Part shown: positions 2,519 to 14,380 of the stretch, piece after piece
Layout of the letters: each line of letters starts with the position of its first letter
Position numbering within the stretch: the stretch's first letter is position 1
IMG/VR virus record: IMGVR_UViG_3300025070_000011
Reading direction: 5' to 3' (one strand)
From: an uncultured virus (IMG/VR IMGVR_UViG_3300025070_000011)
Taxonomy: Duplodnaviria > Heunggongvirae > Uroviricota > Caudoviricetes
Length of the DNA: 20,000 nucleotides
Program-made: the position numbers and the translations under genes
Notes under the pieces: generated by a model
What the model was told of the DNA's origin: nothing
Databases searched by the model: none
Seen by the model: the letters and a program-made list of their open reading frames with translations, nothing else

Positions 2519-2526
2519 TATAAATA
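2519..2526 (+). promoter_or_regulatory. T4-type late promoter
   Basis: Exact intergenic TATAAATA upstream of the 2564 gene. Confidence 0.8.
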
Positions 2527-2563
2527 ATTTTTGAACCCTGTGTTATTATTAGAGGAATTAAAT

Positions 2564-3460
2564 ATGAATAGGTTCATTACAGTCGCAACGCTTAGTCTAA
2601 TGGTTGCGTTTAACGTGGGGTGTGCTTCTGCCTCAGGAAGTGATTACTACGAAGCAATTCGCAAGACCGCAGAAGCTCAGGCTCTTGCATCCGAAGCGAA
2701 GTATCGTGCTCTTGCACAAGTCGCCGCAAGTGGTGATGGTCAGGCTGCATCCGCAGCTGTTATGGCTATCGCACTTTCTCAAGACAAAACTGTGACCCCG
2801 CAGTACGTTGAGTCTACCGCTCTGAAATGGGCGCAAGTTCTCACACCTACTGTTGGTACTCTCGGTCTTGGTTTGATTCAGGCCGGTGTTTCCAAAAATG
2901 CGTCTGACAACGCCTCCAAAGTCCAGATGGCAAGTATGGCTAGTAATGAAGCCATTCAACTTGGTCAACAGGGTATGGTCGGTGATTTGGTCGGTGATCT
3001 GAGTACTGGTTGGTCTACTAGTGCAGCTGCTGGTGGTGCCGCTACTGCTGAGATTGCAATTGCAGGATTCACTGCATTGAATACTGCGGGTGGCCAAACT
3101 GTTTCGTTGGGTGTTGCCGGTCTTGATGCTACGGAAAATGTCGCTACGGTTGGTATGAACAATATCACCCAGTTGGGTCAGGATGGTCTGACCACCGCCT
3201 CAACAATCGCCAATTTTGGCATGACAGGTATGCAAACGTTGGGTGTTGCCGGTATGGAGGGCATTGCAGATGTTTCCAATACTGGTATGACAAACCTTAC
3301 CACTCTTGGTGTAACGGGAATGGCTTTGGTTGACAGTCAAGGAAATAACTACGCTGATATCATTACTGATATGCAGAGTAGTATCGATTCCGCTATTGGT
3401 GAGTTGGCTACTCCAATCACTTGTAGTCCTGATGCAAATGGTGCGATGGTCTGTCAGTAA
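2564..3460 (+). CDS. Ala/Gly/Thr-rich putative lipoprotein with 11-residue repeats
   Basis: ATG 2564 with GAGGA SD. MNRFITVATLSLMVAFNVG-C is a lipoprotein-like signal; seven tandem 11-mers lie at 3092-3322; C-terminal Cys pair. Confidence 0.7.
   Translation: MNRFITVATLSLMVAFNVGCASASGSDYYEAIRKTAEAQALASEAKYRALAQVAASGDGQAASAAVMAIALSQDKTVTPQYVESTALKWAQVLTPTVGTLGLGLIQAGVSKNASDNASKVQMASMASNEAIQLGQQGMVGDLVGDLSTGWSTSAAAGGAATAEIAIAGFTALNTAGGQTVSLGVAGLDATENVATVGMNNITQLGQDGLTTASTIANFGMTGMQTLGVAGMEGIADVSNTGMTNLTTLGVTGMALVDSQGNNYADIITDMQSSIDSAIGELATPITCSPDANGAMVCQ
3092..3322 (+). repeat. Seven tandem 11-aa (33 nt) degenerate protein repeats ending in G[LM]
   Basis: GQTVSLGVAGL/DATENVATVGM/NNITQLGQDGL/TTASTIANFGM/TGMQTLGVAGM/EGIADVSNTGM/TNLTTLGVTGM. 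Confidence 0.8.
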
Positions 3461-4012: not shown

Positions 4013-4020
4013 TATAAATA
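4013..4020 (+). promoter_or_regulatory. T4-type late promoter
   Basis: Exact TATAAATA; ATG follows after 5 nt. Confidence 0.85.
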
Positions 4021-4025
4021 ATGGT

Positions 4026-5285
4026 ATGTATAGTTTTTCATCATATTTAAAAGAAGATGCCCAAGGCAAGAATCTTCATCTAGAACACCTAGAAGACGAA
4101 ATCATTAATTTCGGAATAGGTGGGGCTAGAGGCGCAATTAACTTTTTACAGTCGTTGCGTGATATGCTTTCTGGTAGTTCTCGTTCATCTGTTCACATGA
4201 CTGTGAAATGGGATGGTGCGCCTGCGATATTCGCCGGCGTCGATCCTTCTGATGGAAAGTTCTTTGTCGCAAAGAAATCGGTATTCAATAAAACACCGTT
4301 ACTATACAAGACACGACAAGAAATTCAGTCTGACCCCAAACTTCCACAGGCACTCAAACCCACCTTTATTACTGCGCTTGATGAATTCAGTAAATTGGGT
4401 ATAAAGGGTGTCTTACAGGGTGATCTGATGTTTACTGGTAGCAGTCTAGAAACAGATACGATTGATGGCCAGCGATACACCACTTTTCAACCTAACACAA
4501 TCGTCTACGCAATTCCAAGTGGGTCTGAGTTGGATCGACAGATTCGTGCCGCGAAGATCGGCGTTGTGTGGCATACCACATATTCTGGTAACAGTCTACA
4601 AAATATGAGAGCGTCATTCGGTGCCAACATATCTGGATTGAAAAAAAGCAGAAGTGTGTGGATGGATGATGCCTCTTATAGAGACGAAAGTGGTACTGCT
4701 ACATTTACTAAATCAGAGACCGCATCTATAACTGCGAAACTTGCTGCGGCAGGTAGACTATTTCAAAACATTGACGCGGGACAACTAAAGACTTTTCTCC
4801 GCTTGCAATCTGCAATGGAGGGTTCTAGTCACACCGCTGGTGCTACACTCAAGACCTACAACAACTCAAAGGTTCGGGTCGGGAAAAAGGTTACCAATGT
4901 CCGACAACATGTGTCTGGATATGAAAAGTGGGTAGAAGAAAAATTCGATGCCGCAATCAACAAATTAAAAACGCCGGCGTCCAAAGATAAACTCGAAAAG
5001 AAAAAGAAAGAGACTATAAGAGAACTCAAAAAGTATGACAATCTGCTTATTAACGTGGTTGGTTTTCAAAACGAACTTGTCGAAGCAAAAATGCAGATCG
5101 TCACAAAACTAAACGGCATCAAACAGCTGATGAATACCTTTGTTCGCACCAAACAGGGATTCAAAGTAACTGCACCGGAAGGATATGTTGCGATTGACAG
5201 GGTTGGTGGCAACGCGGTGAAGTTGGTAGACCGCATGGAATTTAGTTACAACAACTTCACTGCGATAAAAAGTTGGGACAGATGA
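4026..5285 (+). CDS. Conserved T4-like phage protein (DUF6267-like) with ATP-dependent ligase/capping-type nucleotidyltransferase motifs
   Basis: HLEHLED N-terminus, TVKWDG (motif I KxDG, 4206-4217), LQGDLMF (motif III-like), PEGYVA (motif IV, EGYV at 5178-5189), VKLVDR (motif V-like). Confidence 0.7.
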   Translation: MYSFSSYLKEDAQGKNLHLEHLEDEIINFGIGGARGAINFLQSLRDMLSGSSRSSVHMTVKWDGAPAIFAGVDPSDGKFFVAKKSVFNKTPLLYKTRQEIQSDPKLPQALKPTFITALDEFSKLGIKGVLQGDLMFTGSSLETDTIDGQRYTTFQPNTIVYAIPSGSELDRQIRAAKIGVVWHTTYSGNSLQNMRASFGANISGLKKSRSVWMDDASYRDESGTATFTKSETASITAKLAAAGRLFQNIDAGQLKTFLRLQSAMEGSSHTAGATLKTYNNSKVRVGKKVTNVRQHVSGYEKWVEEKFDAAINKLKTPASKDKLEKKKKETIRELKKYDNLLINVVGFQNELVEAKMQIVTKLNGIKQLMNTFVRTKQGFKVTAPEGYVAIDRVGGNAVKLVDRMEFSYNNFTAIKSWDR

Positions 5286-5932
5286 GACTAAGAGAAGAAA
5301 AAGAAAAACATATGGTCTTTGCTTTCGGTAGGATGAATCCACCCACTGCCGGTCACAGTAAACTAGTGGATAAGGTTCACTCCCATGCAAAGTCTATTGG
5401 GGCTGACCACAGAGTTATCGTGAGCCACTCTCAAGATAAACACAAGAACCCTCTGACATCTGCACAGAAGACTCGTTATCTAAAGCACGTTCATCCGCAT
5501 GGGAAGTTTGAGGCATCCTCTAACTCGCAACCACATGTTTTTGCACACCTTGCAAAGATGCACAAAGAGGGACACACTCACGTTACTATGGTTGCCGGTT
5601 CTGACCGTGTACATGAATTTCACAAACTGATAAACAAGTACAACGGCAAGAAAGGTAGTCATGGATATTACAAATTCAAGAGTCTCAAAGTAGTCTCTGC
5701 TGGGGCCCGTGATCCAGACGCAACGGGTGTCGCCGGTATCAGTGGAACAAAGATGCGATCACACGCATCCAATAACGATTATAAATCCTTTAAGTCTGGT
5801 TTACATAAAAACACCTCACATGGCGAGGCAAAAAAACTATTCCATGCTACAAGAAAGGGAATGGGTCTCAAAGAGGGTCAAACTAGATTATCATTTGGAG
5901 CATTTTTAAATGAACAGAGAAGCAGTATTTGA
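5282..5932 (+). CDS. Cytidyltransferase-like (HxGH superfamily, NMNAT/CoaD-like) nucleotidyltransferase
   Basis: FAFGRMNPPTAGH (TxGH), KNPL, VAGSDR and ISGTKMR motifs; ATGA overlap with the upstream gene. Confidence 0.85.
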   Translation: MRLREEKEKHMVFAFGRMNPPTAGHSKLVDKVHSHAKSIGADHRVIVSHSQDKHKNPLTSAQKTRYLKHVHPHGKFEASSNSQPHVFAHLAKMHKEGHTHVTMVAGSDRVHEFHKLINKYNGKKGSHGYYKFKSLKVVSAGARDPDATGVAGISGTKMRSHASNNDYKSFKSGLHKNTSHGEAKKLFHATRKGMGLKEGQTRLSFGAFLNEQRSSI

Positions 5933-6353
5933 ACAACTAAAGATTGACGAGGGAGTAGAATACGAAATCTACCTCGACCATCTTGGATATCCTACCGTGG
6001 GTGTCGGCCACCTCATTTTAGAAGAAGATTACGAGTACGGAAAGGAAGTCGGTACTATGATTTCTGTTGAGAGATGTGAAGAGTTATTCTCACGCGATCT
6101 CGACACCTCTATCAGCGAATGTACTGCTTTGTATGGAGATGGATTTGGAGATTTTCCCGACGAGGTTCAACAGATATTGGTCAACATGATGTTCAATATG
6201 GGTAGAACCAGATTGTCCAAATTCAAAAACTTTAATGCTGCTATTGCTGAAGGAGATTGGAAAACTGCCGCAGTAGAGGGAAGAGATTCACTCTGGCATC
6301 GTCAGGTTACGAATAGGGCAGAAAGATTGATGGTGAGGATGGAAGAAGTATGA
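5910..6353 (+). CDS. T4-type lysozyme / endolysin (GH24)
   Basis: QLKIDEG...IYLDHLGYPTVGVGHL with catalytic E14-x8-D23-x5-T29; LVNMMFNMG and DSLWHRQVTNRAERL parallel T4 gpe. Confidence 0.93.
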   Translation: MNREAVFEQLKIDEGVEYEIYLDHLGYPTVGVGHLILEEDYEYGKEVGTMISVERCEELFSRDLDTSISECTALYGDGFGDFPDEVQQILVNMMFNMGRTRLSKFKNFNAAIAEGDWKTAAVEGRDSLWHRQVTNRAERLMVRMEEV

Positions 6354-6721
6354 GAGCCTTTTTAATTGGTGTTGTATTTTTGTCTATGGTAGGATGTTCT
6401 CAACTCACAGGATTTCTCCCCGACAAGTTTGACAGTACAGAATATGGTACATTGGTAGAACTCGCAATCGTATCAGAAAACACAAAAGACTGTGACCGAG
6501 ATGTGATGGAGTTTGCATGGGCAAAGAGTGCCTTCTTGCAAAAATATTCAGAACACACGATGAATGACAACAATGCGGCGATCTATACTCAAATCCATGA
6601 TCTAGTGAACGAACTGAAAATTAGACAGGAACCATCGCTTGGTTACTGTAGAATCAAGTGGGGAAACATTTCCTCTATTGTAGAAGAAGCATTAGTCATA
6701 TCTGGGAGTAGAATGAAATGA
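6350..6721 (+). CDS. Putative lipoprotein
   Basis: MRAFLIGVVFLSMVG-C lipobox; two further Cys; ATGA coupling to the lysozyme. Confidence 0.7.
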   Translation: MRAFLIGVVFLSMVGCSQLTGFLPDKFDSTEYGTLVELAIVSENTKDCDRDVMEFAWAKSAFLQKYSEHTMNDNNAAIYTQIHDLVNELKIRQEPSLGYCRIKWGNISSIVEEALVISGSRMK

Positions 6722-6933
6722 CAGAAGAACAACTCATAAAAAAATATTCCCAGAAAGTCCGTGAATTGAACGAACTCCTAGATACTGGAATGATATCTCA
6801 GGCAGAGTATGAAGAACTGGTGCAGGATTTTACTGATATCGAAACTATTCGTGATGACATTAAAGAAGAGGACATGAAAATTAAGGCGGCTAAAATCATA
6901 GACGCCATCTCCCATTTGATTAAAATATTATAA
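6718..6933 (+). CDS. Small SHOCT-like domain protein
   Basis: VRELNELLDTGMISQAEYEEL matches the SHOCT pattern LxxLxxxGxIsxxEy. Confidence 0.6.
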   Translation: MTEEQLIKKYSQKVRELNELLDTGMISQAEYEELVQDFTDIETIRDDIKEEDMKIKAAKIIDAISHLIKIL

Positions 6934-6936
6934 ATA
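6929..6936 (+). promoter_or_regulatory. T4-type late promoter
   Basis: Exact TATAAATA containing the upstream TAA stop; ATG 5 nt downstream. Confidence 0.85.
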
Positions 6937-6941
6937 GTCTT

Positions 6942-9278
6942 ATGGAAAAATCATTCAAAGACTTTGTACCACTTGAGGAGGGCGTAAACGATCCCGCCAT
7001 CTTCAAAGCGGTATTTTTAGCAGGTGGGCCAGGCAGCGGAAAATCTTTCGTTGTCGGTAAATCCGCACTGACCTCGTTTGGTCTAAAATTAGTAAACTCT
7101 GATACCGCATTTGAGGCTGCACTGAAGAAGGCAGGTCTTACAAAAACACCAGGCGATATTTTCTCCACGAAAGGTCAGTCTTTGCGTGATCGTGCCACGT
7201 TAATAACCAAGAAGAAACAAGAGGGTTACTTAAATGGTAGACTCGGTTTGGTTATCGATGGTACTGGAAAAGATTTTGAGAAAATCAGACAACAAAAAAT
7301 AGAGTTAGAAAAGTTGGGATATGAGACTGCAATGATTCTCGTAAACACTGACTTGGACACTGCTGTTGCCAGAGATAAGAAACGCGACAGAACTTTGGGT
7401 AAGACAAAAGTCGAACCAATGTGGAGATCGGTTCAAAACAACATTGGTAAATTCCAAAACCTATTTGGTAATCAGTTTATCGTTGTTGATAACACAGATG
7501 GTGCCAACTACGAAGGTGGTATCATGTCTGCTTTCAGAAAGATCGGTCAGTGGACAAGACAAACTCCAAACAACCACCTTGCTCAAAGATGGATTCGCGA
7601 CCAGAAACAACGGAGAGGTATGAAAGAAGAAAAAGAATTTAAACCTCACTATATGTTCAAGGATGGCAAAAAGGTTTTTGCGAAAAAAGAAAAAGATCAT
7701 ATAAAACTCATGAAACAGGGTTGGTCTCATGATGACCCCTCTACAAAAGAAATAGAAGAAGATTTACGCAAGTGGTTTGGCAAGGGGCCAAAAGGTGATT
7801 GGGTCCGTGTAGGTACAGACGGAAAGATCAAAGGTGACTGTGCTAGAGAGCCTGGAGAAGGCAAACCCAAGTGTATGCCCAGATCAAAGGCTCACAGCAT
7901 GTCCAAAGATGACAGGGCAACATCTGCTAGAAGAAAAAGAAGGAAAGACCCAGTTGCAGATCGTAGTGGTAAGGGCGGCAAACCAGTTATGGTAAAGACC
8001 GATGTCAAAGAGGCATCAATGTCAGCACAAGATCGTTTTGCAAAAAGACTTAAAGACAAACATGGTATGGACTTGGAAGCCAAGTTGAAGTACTATGAGG
8101 ACATGAAGAAAAAATTTCAACAGACATCAGCGAAAACAGTAAAATCAGAAGAGAAGATTGATGAAAAGTGTTGGAATGGATATAAAGAGAAAGGTCTGAA
8201 AAAGAAAGGCAATAGGGTTGTTCCGAATTGCGTCCCAGTATCAGAGACTCCGCAGTGGATGCAACCCGCACTGGCAAAGACTGTCTATAAAACTCAGTAC
8301 AAACACGCACACAAACTTCTGAAACAAATTGTAGACCGCAAGAAGAAAGAGGGTGGTGGCAAACTCCGACATGGTGTTGAGTACTATGCCGCAAAGGTTG
8401 CAGGACAGGTTTCGGATAAGGTTGATCCCAGAACTCTTGCTGGTATGTATGAAGATGTGCAGATTAGTAAGTACGAGTGGGGTAGACCAGAAGGAACTGC
8501 GTATTTGAAGGCAGTAACACCTGGCGAGCCAGGAGAAACCACAAAGAAAAACAAGACTACTAATAAGTACCACTACAAGGCAAAGGTACAAGAGAACTGC
8601 GGTTGCGGTCAAGACCCCTGCATCACATACGGTAAGCAAGCAGTGAAAGAACACTGTGGTTGTGAAGAAGATGCCGATTATGATGTTTTGGAAATGGACC
8701 ACCATGTATTCAGTGAGAGAGAAATCGAAGAGATGGAAACTCAGATTGATGGCATGAATTTCGATGACCTAATTGATCTTGGAATGTATGACGAAGAAGA
8801 AGTTGAAGAATTAGATGCTGCGGCAGAGGAAGATGAGGATATTCACGATAACATTGATATCCTTGAAAATCTGTCAATTCAAGGTAGAATGAAACGTCGA
8901 TTCAACGCTCGTCGTAACAAACAAAAACTGAAGGTTGCTCGTATGAGGGCATCCAGAAGAGCCGCCGACCCCGCAAGAATTAAGAGAAGGGCATCTCGCG
9001 GTGCAAGAAACATGATTAAAGGTCGCATTGCGAGAGGTAGAGATATCAAGTCTTTGCCACCCGCAGAGAAGGCAAGAATTGAAGCGATGGCCAAACGTTT
9101 TGGTGGTCTGGTTTCTAGACTCGCACAGAGAATGGTCCCGATAATCAGAAAGAACGAACTGAAGAGACTTACTTCAAGAAGAAGTAAACCACAGAAGGCT
9201 AAGAAATATAATCCAGCACAGGCGAAGTCACAGGCGTCTAAACAGAAGGCTAAGAAGTTTAAGGTGAAGAAGAAATGA
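6942..9278 (+). CDS. Modular protein: N-terminal P-loop kinase (zeta-toxin/PNK-like) plus multiple short basic modules; putative internal-head polyprotein
   Basis: AGGPGSGKS Walker A, VNSD, LVIDGTG and ARDKKRDR lid in about aa 14-225. Then modules DLRKWF..KPKCMP, KCWNGY..VPNCVP, YEWGRPEG, CGCGQDPC and an Arg-rich tail, separated by x-x-E(E) linkers. Confidence 0.75.
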   Translation: MEKSFKDFVPLEEGVNDPAIFKAVFLAGGPGSGKSFVVGKSALTSFGLKLVNSDTAFEAALKKAGLTKTPGDIFSTKGQSLRDRATLITKKKQEGYLNGRLGLVIDGTGKDFEKIRQQKIELEKLGYETAMILVNTDLDTAVARDKKRDRTLGKTKVEPMWRSVQNNIGKFQNLFGNQFIVVDNTDGANYEGGIMSAFRKIGQWTRQTPNNHLAQRWIRDQKQRRGMKEEKEFKPHYMFKDGKKVFAKKEKDHIKLMKQGWSHDDPSTKEIEEDLRKWFGKGPKGDWVRVGTDGKIKGDCAREPGEGKPKCMPRSKAHSMSKDDRATSARRKRRKDPVADRSGKGGKPVMVKTDVKEASMSAQDRFAKRLKDKHGMDLEAKLKYYEDMKKKFQQTSAKTVKSEEKIDEKCWNGYKEKGLKKKGNRVVPNCVPVSETPQWMQPALAKTVYKTQYKHAHKLLKQIVDRKKKEGGGKLRHGVEYYAAKVAGQVSDKVDPRTLAGMYEDVQISKYEWGRPEGTAYLKAVTPGEPGETTKKNKTTNKYHYKAKVQENCGCGQDPCITYGKQAVKEHCGCEEDADYDVLEMDHHVFSEREIEEMETQIDGMNFDDLIDLGMYDEEEVEELDAAAEEDEDIHDNIDILENLSIQGRMKRRFNARRNKQKLKVARMRASRRAADPARIKRRASRGARNMIKGRIARGRDIKSLPPAEKARIEAMAKRFGGLVSRLAQRMVPIIRKNELKRLTSRRSKPQKAKKYNPAQAKSQASKQKAKKFKVKKK

Positions 9279-9541
9279 AGACTTTTTTGGAGTTTGTCAC
9301 AGAAGAAGGTATTAAGTCTGGACACAAACGGCCCACTGATAAAGGTGCTGGTCTGACACAGAAGGGCGTAGATGCAGAGAACCGCAGAACCGGCGGCAAT
9401 CTACAGACTGCTGTTACTACGCCTCCTAGTAAACTAAAGAAAGGTAGCAAAGCGGCTAATAGAAGAAAATCCTTCTGTGCCCGATCACGCGGTTGGACGG
9501 GTGAAAGAGGTAAGGCTGCAAGAAGAAGATGGAACTGCTAA
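9275..9541 (+). CDS. Small basic protein (DUF6321-like) with a capsid-targeting-like leader
   Basis: MKTFLEFVTEE leader; GLTQKGV..NRRTGGNL...RRKSFCAR...ARRRWNC motifs. Confidence 0.75.
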   Translation: MKTFLEFVTEEGIKSGHKRPTDKGAGLTQKGVDAENRRTGGNLQTAVTTPPSKLKKGSKAANRRKSFCARSRGWTGERGKAARRRWNC

Positions 9542-9556
9542 GAGTTTAATTTCGTT

Positions 9557-10513
9557 ATGACAATTGATGATATTCTGAAGTACACAAGACAGTACTTGGG
9601 TAAAGGTCTTTCTTGGGAAAACAGTGTGTGTCTCCCACAAGAAAATCTGCCAACAATCCGAAAGTGCCTCGGTGGTATCAATCTTGCTTTATGTGATTCA
9701 ATAGACTCGTGGAAAGAAAACAGAACACATAATTTGTTTTGGATTGACCCAGACACACAAGAAACCTTTAACGAACACAAGAATGACCCCCAGACCCGAA
9801 AGTGTCTGGAACAGTTTAACTGGATAAGAACTGACGGGTCGCAAAACGCCGTTTCAGTCCAGTACCTCCTCAACGACCAAGGATACCGAATAGACCACGG
9901 TTATGATGAAGACGGAATTATTTTCTATGGATGCAGTTTTACATTCGGTATCGGTCTAGACAAGGAACATACCTTCACTGAGATAGTATCAAAAGAACTG
10001 GGTCTTGCAAATTTTAATTTCGGTATCCCTGGCGTTGGACTTGATGCAAGCGTAATTCATGCTTTGTTCTTACTCAAACACACTGTCAAGAAACCAAAAG
10101 CGATGGTTGTTTTTACACCACCACCAAGAAGGTGGAACTACTTTAACGGATCTCAGATTGTAACCACCTCTTCTCAACAGATTTCAAAATACAGGAAAAT
10201 TACAGAAGAGTATGTAATGTCAATGGAGTATCAATGTGTCACGGATGACATGAATAACCTTATTCAGACAACCAAGAACATCATGGTGTTGCGAGATATC
10301 GCAAAAGAACTGGATATCCCTTTCGTTTTGGCTGACTATTCAAAGGACTTTGACAGAGAGTTTAAAGCTTATCATTATTGGAAACACTGTGCTCAACGTG
10401 GAGATGAATCTTTTGATGGGGTTTCTATGGCCAGAGACCTCATACACCCAGGCGAAGAAACAAATGCAAAGTGGGCAGAAATAATCATAAAACTAATCAA
10501 AGAAAAACTATAA
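9557..10513 (+). CDS. SGNH/GDSL-like hydrolase or acyltransferase domain protein
   Basis: FYGCSFTFG (block I), NFGIPG (block II), ARDLIHPG (DxxH, block V). Confidence 0.7.
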   Translation: MTIDDILKYTRQYLGKGLSWENSVCLPQENLPTIRKCLGGINLALCDSIDSWKENRTHNLFWIDPDTQETFNEHKNDPQTRKCLEQFNWIRTDGSQNAVSVQYLLNDQGYRIDHGYDEDGIIFYGCSFTFGIGLDKEHTFTEIVSKELGLANFNFGIPGVGLDASVIHALFLLKHTVKKPKAMVVFTPPPRRWNYFNGSQIVTTSSQQISKYRKITEEYVMSMEYQCVTDDMNNLIQTTKNIMVLRDIAKELDIPFVLADYSKDFDREFKAYHYWKHCAQRGDESFDGVSMARDLIHPGEETNAKWAEIIIKLIKEKL

Positions 10514-10516
10514 ATA
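10509..10516 (+). promoter_or_regulatory. T4-type late promoter
   Basis: Exact TATAAATA containing the upstream TAA stop; ATG 6 nt downstream. Confidence 0.8.
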
Positions 10517-10522
10517 CTGTTT

Positions 10523-10771
10523 ATGAGATGGTTAATAGAAAAAATTAAAGAGTGGTTGAAGGAAGAATATCAACTTACTGTTTACTACCCAGGCGAAACT
10601 ACTGTTCTGCCTGATGGTACTCGCATAGAGACGTTTAGTCCAAAAACTTATCATGCTAAAAAAATCTTAAAACTAAAACAAAACCACATTATTTTTATTG
10701 GTACTGATAAAAAGAGACATGAAATAAGAGTTGTAAATCCAGTTGGATTTGATTTGAAAAAAATATATTGA
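10523..10771 (+). CDS. Hypothetical phage protein
   Basis: 82 aa ORF with an amphipathic N-terminal helix, directly behind a late promoter. Confidence 0.75.
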   Translation: MRWLIEKIKEWLKEEYQLTVYYPGETTVLPDGTRIETFSPKTYHAKKILKLKQNHIIFIGTDKKRHEIRVVNPVGFDLKKIY

Positions 10772-10784
10772 TGATGGAGACAAC

Positions 10785-12389
10785 ATGGATTACGTTGACG
10801 TACTATTATTTACGGGACTAGGTTCGTATTCACACGGCGTACAGGCTGCAACAGAAGAACCTAGTTACGAAACCAGAAGTCGAACTTCTGGCACCTACCG
10901 AATTGCCACATACCTAAGAGATGAATTCGACTTTAACGTAGAAGTTGTCGATTTTATGTTTTCTTGGCGGTATGAAGAACTCGTTGAAATTGTAGATAGC
11001 AGGGTCGGACCAGACACTAAGATGGTGGGTGTGGGTGGGCTCTTCTTTCTTGCAGCCCCGAACATTGTTAATATATTCAAATACGTTAAAACCAATTATC
11101 CCAATGTGACCACTTGTGCTGGAAGTCAGGACATCTGGTCACTTATGAAAATACCAAACATCGATTATTACTGTATTGGTTATGGTGAACTCGGCATGAA
11201 GGCCATAATACAGGGTAATCCAGAAGTAAAACAATTTACGCCCTTTGAAGGCGGACCTACATTTCCAGTAGTAGATTGTTGGGAAAACTCAAAGTATCAT
11301 GCGTACCCTTGGTCTGAATTGCCAATCCGATACGAGAAAAGAGACTTTATTAAACCCTACGAAGTTTTGTCTATGGAAACTTCTAGAGGATGTCGATTCG
11401 CCTGTTCCTATTGCAACTTCCCGATTCTGGGTGTGAAGGGTGACTATACTCGTTCACAAGATTGTTTTGAGAGAAACATAAAAGAAAACTATGACCTTTG
11501 GGGAACAACAGAGTACATCATTACTGATGATACTTTCAATGACTACATTCCAAAAATTAAAAAGTATGGTGATGTTGTTCAGTCATGTGATTTTAAACCA
11601 AACTTTACTGGGTACATTCGCGCAGACTTGATGACTCAACGCAAGGGTGACCTAGAAGAACTTGCTAGAATGAGATTCAATAGTCATCTCTATGGGATCG
11701 AATCAACAAATCATGCAAGTGCCAAATCAATGGGAAAGGGTGGTGACCCAAAGAAGATTCTAGATGGCATTCTAAAAGCTAAAGAATATTTCTTAAAAGA
11801 GAATGGGTTTTATCGGGGGGAGATAAGTTTGATTTGGGGGTTGCCGTACGAGACTCCAGAAACTCTAGACTGGACCTTCAAGTGGTTGGATGATAATTGG
11901 CAGTCTCAGGCAGTATCGATGTTCCCTCTACATATTATGAGAGACAATGGAATGACGCGACCCAGTGATCTTACCTCTAAGAAAGACAAGTGGTACAAGA
12001 CCCCGCAACCAATGGAAATCGAACCAGTAGGCGACAGACTAGATCACATCTACGCCGATCCAAATGTCGATGATTATTTCAAGAGAAGAATCAAACTCCT
12101 TGAACCAGATTTGAATAGTCCACACTGGCACCATTTGACATATATGTGGAAAAACGAACACTATGATGCGGTCAGTGCATATATTGGTGTGCAGAACATG
12201 TTATTTGGTCATGATAGATATTGGGATAGGGGTGTACCCATTTTTAACCAATCAAACTGGCAAGGAGTGGGGTTTAGTAAGGCCGATATGTTGAAAAATT
12301 TCAGAGAATTGCCTAGTATGATGAATCCACCCGAAGAAATGGTAAAATCAGCTATAGAAGAGTACAAACAGAATAAGTTATCTTTATAA
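10785..12389 (+). CDS. Radical SAM enzyme with a B12-binding-like N-terminal domain
   Basis: ETSRGCRFACSYC (CxxxCxxC), ITDDTFN, YIRADL, YGIES and LIWGLPYET. N-terminal IATYLR...VEVVD...GYGE is typical of cobalamin-dependent radical SAM proteins. GGAG SD. Confidence 0.88.
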   Translation: MDYVDVLLFTGLGSYSHGVQAATEEPSYETRSRTSGTYRIATYLRDEFDFNVEVVDFMFSWRYEELVEIVDSRVGPDTKMVGVGGLFFLAAPNIVNIFKYVKTNYPNVTTCAGSQDIWSLMKIPNIDYYCIGYGELGMKAIIQGNPEVKQFTPFEGGPTFPVVDCWENSKYHAYPWSELPIRYEKRDFIKPYEVLSMETSRGCRFACSYCNFPILGVKGDYTRSQDCFERNIKENYDLWGTTEYIITDDTFNDYIPKIKKYGDVVQSCDFKPNFTGYIRADLMTQRKGDLEELARMRFNSHLYGIESTNHASAKSMGKGGDPKKILDGILKAKEYFLKENGFYRGEISLIWGLPYETPETLDWTFKWLDDNWQSQAVSMFPLHIMRDNGMTRPSDLTSKKDKWYKTPQPMEIEPVGDRLDHIYADPNVDDYFKRRIKLLEPDLNSPHWHHLTYMWKNEHYDAVSAYIGVQNMLFGHDRYWDRGVPIFNQSNWQGVGFSKADMLKNFRELPSMMNPPEEMVKSAIEEYKQNKLSL

Positions 12390-12392
12390 ATA
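12385..12392 (+). promoter_or_regulatory. T4-type late promoter
   Basis: Exact TATAAATA containing the upstream TAA stop. Confidence 0.8.
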
Positions 12393-12427
12393 TATTGAAA
12401 CGTCAGATTTATTTTGGAGTATACACA

Positions 12428-14377
12428 ATGCCGGTAGAAAGAAACATCCGTGACATATTACAGTCTGGAGAATCTACCCTATTAGAAGCTGATATGTCAA
12501 GAAGACTTGATATGCTGGTTCGACAGGGTATGTTGCCAGTTGCAAAACTGCCACTGTTAAAACGTGGTCTTGAAAAAATGAAATCTGGTAAAGTGGGTAC
12601 TCCGCAAGAAAGAGATGCTGTTAGTGGTGTTCTTGACCAAATGATGTATATCATACTTGGTGACGATACAGTATTCCAGAAAGCACGACAACACACTCAA
12701 AAGAATCGCTATCAGACCGAAGAGAGTGAGATCGAAACGGCCGAAGAGAGTGATGATGTAACCTTGAATGAATGGGAAGAACTGTTGTTGGACATTCAGA
12801 CTCTTGAAGAGAAGAATGTCCCAACAAACCCGAAGTTGTGGTCAAAGTACAAGTCACAGGCGAAGGCAAAATTCGATGTGTATCCTTCTGCTTATGCCAA
12901 TGGTTGGGCTGCCAAGATGTATAAAAAAGCCGGTGGAAGTTGGAAATCAGTTAGTGAAGATGTAGAACAGGTTGATGAAGTATCATCTAAAATGTTGGCA
13001 AGTTACCAACAAAAGAACGAGACTGATCGTGAAAAGGCGGTTGGTACTCAGGATGTAGATAAGATTAAAAAACGTGTGAAGGGTGACCGTCTTGCAAGTA
13101 AGAAGAGATATTCATCCGTTTACAAGAAGTATGGTTTATCTACTGCCAAGGTTCCTGCTACTAACGAAGAAACGGACCTAGAAGAAAAGGTTGAAGACAT
13201 GGAAATGGGTGAAGTCATCAAGGACTTCCAAAAGTCTGATGCACCCCAATTTAAGGGCAAGTCTAAAGAAAAGAAGAGAGAGATGGCCATCGCTGCTAAA
13301 CTCTCCAAAGAAGAGACCGAAGAGGAAATTACCGTGGACATGAACAATCCGTTTGCCGCCGCTAAGAAATCAAAACTCGACGAGTACAAAGTTAAGAATC
13401 CTGGCTCAGACGCAGAAGATTCTCGACAACGCGCCAAGAAGGCCGCCGAGAGACTTTCTCGCAAAGTTTCAAAGACTGAGAGGGAAACTGATCCGGGCCT
13501 TGACGAAGTTAAAAAGGTTGATTGTCCAGAGTGTAAGGGTAAAGGTTGTTCCGAATGCGATGACAAGGGATATCAACTCAAAGAGTATATCACTGGTAAA
13601 CAAGTTAAGATGGCGAAGGGTATTGCAAATGACCCCCGTCACAAGGGTGGTGACATGACGGGTGCCGCAAAGAAGATGGAAAAGATTAAGAAAGGTCTTT
13701 CTAATCACCCAGGCGCTCAGAAGGCTCTCCGCACTGCAAACGAAGGTATGTTCGATGACTACTCCGATGAAGAGTTGGATGAGTTGATCGAAATGGAATT
13801 CAAGGCAAAGTTTCAGGCGATGCTGAAGAAATCAGGTAAGTCTCTTGGTTCTATGTCCCCAGAAGAGAAAAAGAAATTCTTCAACAGTGTAGATGCCGCA
13901 CACAACGCAAAGAATGAAAACTACACCATGAAGAATGATTATGCAAAGTCTTCTGGTGCTATGTCAAAGGACAAGGCAAGTCACAACACTGGTGGGATGC
14001 GTATCTCAAATAAAGATGCTGGTGCTGCCAAGGCAAGACTCATGAAGAAGAAGGGTATCACTGAAGATGCCGCTGCGGATGCAAAGAGAGACTATGATGC
14101 GGATGATAAGAAAGGTCTTGCTCCTACTAAGTCGGACAAACCCGCAAAGGTCAGTGACGCATCAAACGCAAAAGAAATCGAACACATTGTACCTCAGATG
14201 CGAAAAGCAATTACCGTTGGTAAAGAGGTTCAATTCCAAGATGGGAAGACGCACAAGATCAGTAAAGGACACGCTGCAAAGTTCTTGAATAAGTACATGA
14301 ACAGCAAACCCGCTGACAAACAAGCAATGCAAACGTCTGCCCACAAGAGCCACGATCATTTTAAGAAGCACGTATAA
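12428..14377 (+). CDS. Modular K/E-rich protein; putative internal-head polyprotein with a DUF5872-like module and a CxxCxGxG zinc finger
   Basis: ATG 12428 with GGAG SD. Modules KNVPTNPKLW..VYPSAYANGW..YKKAGG, DFQKSDAPQFKGKSKE, CPECKGKGCSECDDKG, GIANDPRHKGG and SMSPEEKKKFFN, separated by LEE/VDE/LDE/LKE/LIE/ITE linkers. Confidence 0.75.
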   Translation: MPVERNIRDILQSGESTLLEADMSRRLDMLVRQGMLPVAKLPLLKRGLEKMKSGKVGTPQERDAVSGVLDQMMYIILGDDTVFQKARQHTQKNRYQTEESEIETAEESDDVTLNEWEELLLDIQTLEEKNVPTNPKLWSKYKSQAKAKFDVYPSAYANGWAAKMYKKAGGSWKSVSEDVEQVDEVSSKMLASYQQKNETDREKAVGTQDVDKIKKRVKGDRLASKKRYSSVYKKYGLSTAKVPATNEETDLEEKVEDMEMGEVIKDFQKSDAPQFKGKSKEKKREMAIAAKLSKEETEEEITVDMNNPFAAAKKSKLDEYKVKNPGSDAEDSRQRAKKAAERLSRKVSKTERETDPGLDEVKKVDCPECKGKGCSECDDKGYQLKEYITGKQVKMAKGIANDPRHKGGDMTGAAKKMEKIKKGLSNHPGAQKALRTANEGMFDDYSDEELDELIEMEFKAKFQAMLKKSGKSLGSMSPEEKKKFFNSVDAAHNAKNENYTMKNDYAKSSGAMSKDKASHNTGGMRISNKDAGAAKARLMKKKGITEDAAADAKRDYDADDKKGLAPTKSDKPAKVSDASNAKEIEHIVPQMRKAITVGKEVQFQDGKTHKISKGHAAKFLNKYMNSKPADKQAMQTSAHKSHDHFKKHV

Positions 14378-14380
14378 ATA
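14373..14380 (+). promoter_or_regulatory. T4-type late promoter
   Basis: Exact TATAAATA containing the upstream TAA stop; AAGGAG SD follows. Confidence 0.85.

Follow-up and report, generated by a model that had tools for sequence, protein, structure and literature searches.

A 20,000-nucleotide stretch of DNA from an uncultured, T4-like marine myovirus (IMG/VR record IMGVR_UViG_3300025070_000011), referred to here as the window, carries a gene for a DUF6267 protein at 4026-5285, followed by genes for an HxGH nucleotidyltransferase (hereafter the transferase), a P-loop kinase with a long tail and an 88-amino-acid (88-aa) basic protein. Our analysis suggests, with a probability of roughly 0.6, that this locus encodes late-expressed, T4-like head cargo consisting of three enzymes and a small basic protein. 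On its motifs and its predicted structure, we file DUF6267 as a new, previously unrecognised family in the ligase/capping superfamily of covalent (lysine) nucleotidyltransferases, not as Rnl1. In the proposed scheme, the DUF6267 protein would be a ligase-superfamily enzyme, the translationally coupled transferase an HxGH enzyme of the adenylyltransferase type with a NadD/PPAT-like fold, and the kinase a P-loop enzyme of the hydroxyl-kinase type that continues into a polybasic, probably DNA-binding tail. DUF6267 is very abundant, including in most T4-like cyanophages, and is filed as of unknown function in Pfam.

Ligase-type fold and candidate head-targeting leaders

The DUF6267 product contains K61-W-D63-G64, Q131-G-D133-L, E385-G-Y-V and V398-K399-L, which the first-pass annotation of this DNA had read as lying in the order of ligase motifs I, III, IV and V. 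This reading was borne out by aligning 111 homologues, which are 35-57% identical to the window protein and have a mean column identity of 34%: seven of the invariant columns (K61, D63, G64, D133, E385, G386 and K399) sit at the places of motifs I, III, IV and V, in order. As the alignment has just 16 such columns in all, the order of the motifs is not due to chance; K61, D133, E385 and K399 are the candidate catalytic residues. The family is very large: a first search matched at least 8000 cluster representatives, and a second gave 2630 at 50% identity.

The AlphaFold (AF2) model of the protein, with a predicted local distance difference test (pLDDT) value of 92.9 and a predicted template modelling score (pTM) of 0.90, consists of disordered residues 1-12, a beta-rich core and C-terminal strands bearing E385/G386 and K399. 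In a Foldseek-independent fold search (VIA-align) of 48,161 PDB chains, the top match was a Naegleria RNA ligase (Z 8.1, 185 residues), with further matches to fungal Trl1 (Z 7.5), T4 Rnl2 (7.3), T4 Rnl1 (6.8), REL1 (6.7) and archaeal Rnl3 (6.5). The ligase rows were interleaved with small helical bundles, which match the helical insertion of DUF6267. In a second-look alignment, 48 of the 50 best PDB entries were RNA or DNA ligases (Z 8.5-5.6; root-mean-square deviation 3.7 over 183 residues for the entry with the best Z), in line with the Rnl-like adenylation fold that had been anticipated.

DUF6267 resembles the ATP-dependent RNA ligases, namely Naegleria NgrRnl (Rnl5; 5cot, 6vt1), Trl1 LIG (6n0t, 8rbj), T4 Rnl2 (2hvq, 1s68) and T4 Rnl1 (9do4), whose adenylyltransferase-domain fold is its best match (Z 8.5-6.8 over 178-205 residues). 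It shares with them KxDG, an acidic motif III, the EG of motif IV and the motif V lysine, in the same order. The spacing EGYVA...K is that of T4 Rnl1, and in a profile comparison PEGYVAIDRVGGNAVKL was locally aligned with IEGYVAVMK-DGSHFKI of T4 Rnl1 (residues 223-241), over the motif IV-V stretch only. The partnership with a P-loop kinase is reminiscent of Trl1 LIG-KIN and of T4 Pnkp plus Rnl1. Unlike the RNA ligases, DUF6267 shows no significant sequence or profile similarity to these enzymes, carries a 135-residue helical bundle between the N-terminal core and motifs IV-V, lacks an OB, Rnl1 C-terminal or Rnl2 C-terminal domain, has a single lysine in motif V, and has a conserved N-terminal NxHxEHxED segment together with a leader resembling a capsid-targeting sequence (CTS).

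This leader, MYSFSSYLKE, has the features of the leader MKTYQEFIAE of the T4 internal proteins IPII and IPIII in NC_000866 (IPI there begins MKTFKEFTST), as does the leader of the 88-aa protein: ten residues with an aromatic residue at positions 4 and 7, an aliphatic one at 8 and Glu at 10. In T4 IPIII, targeting acts mainly via residues 4 and 7 and processing via residues 8 and 10 (PMC9026906). Across the DUF6267 family, the non-gap rows of the alignment have F or Y at position 4 in 66/84 cases, F, Y or W at position 7 in 66/84, L, I or V at position 8 in 92/95 and E at position 10 in 62/72; positions 2, 3, 5, 6 and 9 are variable.

Leaders were scored in fixed register with a position-specific scoring matrix (PSSM) built from 33 marine DUF6267 leaders of other family members, the T4 leaders being kept out of training; the 99.9th percentile of 5893 internal Met sites was 4.4 bits. 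The window DUF6267 leader scored 11.5 bits. That of the 88-aa open reading frame (ORF), a gene absent from the first-pass annotation, scored 16.2 bits and is the best tag of the locus. T4 IPII/III scored 15.2 bits and IPI 10.5 bits; the T4 Alt leader failed. Judged by these sequences, the case that DUF6267 and the 88-aa basic protein bear a T4-type head tag is convincing. In related loci, 19 further ORFs with a leader were tested, and 3 of them encode NT5C-type nucleotidases; a tagged RimK-type ATP-grasp protein is also present. The putative tag marks a varied enzyme set. At L035:3424-4785, L041:4924-5517, L032:10490-10864 and L001:14997-15509, the enzymes with CTS-like tags are NT5C-type 5'-nucleotidases and a RimK-type ATP-grasp that is joined to a Zn_protease domain.

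The T4-type late-promoter word TATAAATA occurs six times on the + strand versus 0.67 times expected, a count reached in none of 200 shuffles, and every copy lies a few bases ahead of a start codon. One copy precedes the DUF6267 gene, and another, at 6929-6936, stands before the kinase gene at 6942-9278, in agreement with the initial view that a kinase with GGPGSGKS and IDGT motifs opens the next late unit. Going by the promoter motif, both genes would be expressed late. A late-promoter motif, basic proteins (isoelectric point (pI) 9.6-11.2 for all proteins of the module) and a variable set of tagged genes in one locus are likenesses to the T4 internal proteins. Unlike those, the cargo here would be enzymes of 419 and 778 aa rather than small inhibitor-type proteins.

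The tag would dock the tagged proteins onto the prohead core, the prohead protease would cleave after Glu10, and the mature basic proteins would lie with the DNA and be ejected into the cell alongside it. Because the enzymes partly carry the T4 head-loading tag, they are probably delivered with the DNA. A homologue of the transferase is present in four published cyanophage virion proteomes, those of S-SZBM1, S-CREM2, S-SCSM1 and S-CBWM1. In S-SZBM1, the cytidylyltransferase _140, which is tagged (MRFRQFIIEA), is among 30 virion proteins together with _139 and _136 (PMC9146016, Table 1). The virion proteins of S-CREM2 include the cytidylyltransferase ORF154 and the products of its neighbours, ORFs 155 and 156 (PMC10665884), and an 'NMNAT' was found in S-SCSM1 and S-CBWM1 virions, where the frequent detection of such proteins was noted (PMC9602691). 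If the tags work as in T4, they would explain these recurrent 'NMNAT-like' proteins in cyanophage virions, and head-delivered cargo could be whole enzyme pathways and not only small inhibitors.

Partner enzymes and their linkage

The stop codon of the DUF6267 gene (TGA, 5283-5285) overlaps the transferase start (ATG at 5282) as ATGA, the coupling to a TxGH nucleotidyltransferase that had been proposed from the sequence. The transferase carries T22-A-G-H25 and G-I-S154-G-T-K-M-R159, passes PF01467 narrowly (22.1 bits against a cut-off of 21) and matches phage 'cytidyltransferase' PHROGs. Its model (pLDDT 90.9) gave 69 PDB matches at E<=0.001 in Foldseek, with NadD and PPAT leading. With NadD/NMNAT, PPAT (CoaD) and NadR, the transferase shares its Rossmann-like fold (Foldseek E 7e-6 to 1e-4) as well as the motifs (T/H)xGH and ISxxxxR; its identity to any enzyme of solved structure is only 10-18%, and, unlike NadD, PPAT and NadR, the transferase is linked to a ligase-fold protein.

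In the kinase domain, the motifs G28GPGSGKS35 and IDGTG are accompanied by invariant D54 and R144/R148/R150. When aligned with residues 3-148 of T4 Pnkp alone by hhalign, it matched over 145 columns (probability 93.8%, pairwise E 1.7e-7), with D54 opposite Asp35, the catalytic base of T4 Pnkp; T4 dNMP kinase matched at the P-loop only. The invariant Asp suggests a hydroxyl-phosphorylating kinase. The GxPGSGKS P-loop is shared with the 5'-kinase domain of T4 Pnkp, zeta toxin, PSTK and adenylate kinases. Unlike T4 Pnkp, the window protein has no HAD phosphatase domain in the Pfam scan and is fused to a 548-residue, overall basic tail, of which residues 621-778 have a pI of 11.6. In the ESM Atlas, the kinase domain matched nothing beyond its own viral Zeta_toxin/AAA_33 clusters. 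Long basic tails with short Cys modules (DUF5824, DUF6321, phrog_727) are found on the kinase or on the transferase, varying by phage, as if the basic Cys-containing tails were a movable DNA-binding module.

The three genes recur together in relatives, as the first reading had expected. The linkage sample comprised 80 viral-contig loci with DUF6267, sorted by the downstream sequence available. Where at least 5 kb was available (n=32), the transferase was found in 31 loci, within 2.5 kb in 25, and the kinase in 11; where at least 7.9 kb was available (n=18), the corresponding numbers were 17, 13 and 8. HTVC008M has the order DUF6267, 170-aa gene, Zeta/AAA_33 kinase, transferase-DUF5824 protein; Melnitz has DUF6267, 130-aa gene, transferase-DUF5824 protein; and DLP_6 has DUF6267, small gene, 722-aa transferase protein. 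Fusions of transferase and kinase, with the transferase first, account for 10 of the 20 kinase ORFs. Of 26 long DUF6267 representatives, six also have a transferase domain, before or after DUF6267 and in one case scoring under the Pfam cut-off; a single one has a kinase at its N terminus, and in 19 there is no other Pfam domain. All pairwise fusions of DUF6267, transferase and kinase thus exist, which argues for one pathway or complex to which the three would belong. S-PM2 has a DUF6267-transferase fusion; its DUF6267 frame is in two pieces (p141/p142, L003 5992-7771), the second being fused to the transferase, and the split could be a frameshift, a sequencing error or real.

A one-genome-per-species scan of prokaryotes returned 56 DUF6267 loci, mostly on contigs of metagenome-assembled genomes; no cellular neighbourhood for DUF6267 was found among them, one of the 56 being annotated. 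The sole locus from an isolate genome (Nonlabens, L138) lies on the contig of a T4-like phage, next to genes for DNA polymerase, UvsX, gp41 and MazG. This 188-kb contig of the Nonlabens xiamenensis assembly (NZ_RMVE01000006.1), with family B polymerase, UvsX, gp41, MazG, DUF6267, transferase, DUF7207 and DUF7201, is probably a co-assembled phage genome.

As a tentative scheme, to which we give somewhat less than an even chance, DUF6267 would self-adenylylate on K61 and join or modify 5'-phosphate polynucleotide ends, with the kinase supplying the 5'-phosphates. The transferase would make a nucleotide cofactor (NAD-like) or adenylylate a phosphate substrate. A rather unlikely extension of this scheme is that marine T4-like phages bear in the capsid a kit for healing and sealing nucleic-acid ends, in which an RNA-ligase-like enzyme of a new family and a Pnkp-like kinase would work with an adenylyltransferase providing or renewing the cofactor; ejected alongside the DNA, the kit would act before phage gene expression. 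Its targets might be, for instance, anticodon nucleases, NAD-depleting defences or the ends of the incoming genome. Reading DUF6267 as a ligase-type enzyme with an adenylyltransferase and a kinase as partners brings a testable function to a core gene set of ocean phages.

Counter-evidence and alternative readings

Several results weigh against the proposal of head-loaded, ligase-type cargo, and they concern both the enzymes and the tag. The structural Z values of DUF6267 are all middling (<=8.5), in a range that the tool warns can be non-specific, so that the fold assignment depends on how uniform the hits are, together with the invariant motif residues. Foldseek of the model against the PDB gave nothing at E<=0.001 (best E 0.07), the weak rows being DNA ligases, T4 Rnl2 and capping enzymes, and sequence searches of the PDB with the single protein and with the profile found no ligases. 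The profile-profile comparison with the T4 Rnl1 family by hhalign was not significant (probability <1%, E 0.1), whether with the single sequence, a 39-sequence Rnl1 profile or split N- and C-terminal parts. Neither an OB domain with motif VI nor any other known accessory domain of ligases is present in DUF6267; 20 residues follow K399, and there the model has no more than a short helix (403-412). A profile search across the PDB placed T4 Pnkp (E 0.026) below adenylate kinases (E 1.5e-4), PSTK and zeta toxin, the kinase being at least as close to these as to Pnkp; as far as the fold goes, the three enzymes are what the first-pass annotation had foreseen. No phosphoesterase domain for 3'-end healing was found in the module. 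PF09511 (the T4 Rnl1 family) gave subthreshold matches only, in 4 of the 111 DUF6267 members (best E 6e-4); the lack of an above-threshold model match and the hhalign probability speak against membership of it.

The tag is not universal. With a pass defined as a first start above the 99th percentile, the PSSM passed 51/85 DUF6267 ORFs, 24/67 transferase ORFs and 1/19 kinase ORFs; the other + strand ORFs passed in 54/640 cases and the minus-strand ORFs in 7/297. Among 106 DUF6267 family members, 16 are leaderless. An earlier leader regular expression, tuned on DUF6267, had found transferase leaders in 8/68 cases and kinase leaders in 4/20. Capsid-targeting-like leaders had at first been assigned to both the DUF6267 and the kinase genes of the window; the former held, and the kinase leader MEKSFKDFVPLEE fails the PSSM (-24), being only loosely CTS-like with an F-x-x-F-V core and a later L-E-E. 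Unlike in the T4 internal proteins, the tag is absent from the window transferase (MRLREEKEKH, -19.6), as also from its three closest relatives, and from cyanophage DUF6267. A complex prediction for DUF6267 and the transferase, bearing on whether the untagged transferase could ride along, scored 0.00 with controls absent and says nothing either way. The S-SZBM1 DUF6267 gene product (_141), which begins MAKNTHLEHLED and is untagged, is not in the virion list of that phage (PMC9146016, Table 1); in S-SZBM1, tag and virion detection go together, one protein each way. This is the one virion proteome in which a DUF6267 homologue was checked. A literature search found no paper naming DUF6267, and for capsid targeting with cyanophage it found only the T4 review PMC9026906, in the available excerpt of which cyanophage appears just in a reference title.

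An alternative that we regard as unlikely is the salvage of NAD+, or of another dinucleotide cofactor, by injected enzymes, in which the transferase would be an NMNAT, the kinase a nicotinamide riboside kinase as in NadR, and DUF6267 a user or beneficiary of the product, for example an NAD+-dependent ligase. The transferase-then-kinase fusions follow the domain order of NadR, weak NadR/NMNAT sequence matches exist, the best Foldseek match of the transferase is NadD (8aih, E 7e-6), the authors of PMC9602691 label the cyanophage homologue NMNAT, and the tagged NT5C-type nucleotidases would fit such a pathway. However, PPAT (5ts2, E 2.5e-5) is effectively tied with NadD, so that the substrate of the transferase cannot be called from the fold search, no NAD-ligase Ia domain or PF01653 match occurs in the five records searched, and the class of the kinase is not fixed by the PDB profile search. 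The curated model TIGR01526 (nadR_NMN_Atrans) does not support assignment of the transferase as NadR/NMNAT, at 15.8 bits against a cut-off of 341.

Still less probable is that the proteins are not cargo at all but late intracellular enzymes, with DUF6267 a phage DNA ligase that seals nicks in replicated DNA before packaging and replaces gp30, and with the leader in another role. DUF6267 adjoins replication genes in relatives, and its absence from the S-SZBM1 virion list would agree with this. PF01068 (gp30 type) matches T4 but none of the four Kyanoviridae genomes Melnitz, HTVC008M, S-PM2 and S-SZBM1, and DUF6267 reverses this pattern, being present in these four and not in T4. Likewise, in the gp30-like tblastn matches, Synechococcus phages are missing from the ten most frequent names, all of which have at least 63 records, whereas they account for 361 of the 459 phage records that match the window DUF6267 product. 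Several T4 replication genes, gp30 listed among them, are absent from one or more marine cyanophages (PMC2993671). The complementary pattern is broken by DLP6, which has both a gp30-type ligase (AAY80_192; PMC5349666) and DUF6267 (AAY80_066), and this co-existence, together with the late promoter and the tag, makes a simple replacement of the replicative ligase less likely. In addition, the leader keeps exactly the positions critical for the T4 CTS, the co-tagged partners include proteins detected in virions, and DUF6267 lacks the OB or DNA-binding domain typical of DNA ligases.

That DUF6267 is a structural or scaffold-like internal protein that kept a ligase-like fold without catalysis is highly improbable. 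In favour of this reading, its sequence is not significantly related to ligases of any family, its helical insertion is large and its pI is basic. Its invariant residues, however, are those expected for nucleotide binding and lysine adenylylation at a mean column identity of 34%, and it is persistently linked or fused to two other nucleotide-handling enzymes.

Features of the window and its neighbouring genes

Table 1 Positions of the described features, in window coordinates or, where stated, in residues of the protein
Feature	Position	Strand	Remarks
TATAAATA	4013..4020	+	6 bases upstream of the DUF6267 start
DUF6267 protein, 419 aa	4026..5285	+	Pfam PF19782, E 5e-102
10-residue leader MYSFSSYLKE	4026..4055	+	putative tag for capsid targeting and cleavage; aromatic residues 4 and 7, Leu 8, Glu 10
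Ligase-type nucleotidyltransferase core (predicted)	residues ~57-215 and 370-412 of DUF6267		AF2 model
Helical insertion (predicted)	residues 229-363 of DUF6267		AF2 model
HxGH (TAGH) + ISGTKMR nucleotidyltransferase, 216 aa	5282..5932	+	no leader in this phage
Lysozyme, T4-e/gp5-like	5910-6353	+	overlaps the transferase 3' end
Lipoprotein-like ORF with MRAFLIGVVFLSMVGC	6350-6721	+	
71-aa acidic ORF	6718-6933	+	SHOCT match below threshold (23.6 bits; cut-off 27)
TATAAATA	6929..6936	+	ahead of the kinase gene
P-loop kinase domain, residues 1-230	6942..7631	+	Pfam AAA_33, Zeta_toxin
C-terminal 548 residues of the 778-aa kinase protein	7632..9278	+	basic Cys-containing part, acidic part, strongly basic tail
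88-aa very basic protein, pI 11.2, DUF6321, leader MKTFLEFVTE	9275..9541	+	candidate small internal protein
534-aa radical-SAM/B12-binding-like protein	10785-12389	+	
660-aa protein, no assigned family	12395-14377	+	

The window ORFs all lie on the + strand and include a primase, ThyX, a ribonucleotide reductase fragment, a radical-SAM protein, a lysozyme and DUF7207/DUF7201 proteins. The nearest phage relatives of the DUF6267 product are those of Methylophilales phage Melnitz (63% identity), then Pelagibacter phage HTVC008M and cyanomyoviruses; DNA nearly identical to the window was not found in the phage collection searched. A lysis-type cassette lies between the transferase and kinase genes (5910-6933). 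Within 2519-3460, another TATAAATA motif precedes a gene for an Ala/Gly/Thr-rich protein of about 300 residues, which has a lipoprotein-type signal (…VAFNVGCASA) and no family match. The 534-aa and 660-aa proteins of Table 1 are encoded by two of the ORFs that lie behind three further TATAAATA motifs, at 10509, 12385 and 14373 (window 10509-14380), each of which has an ORF after it.

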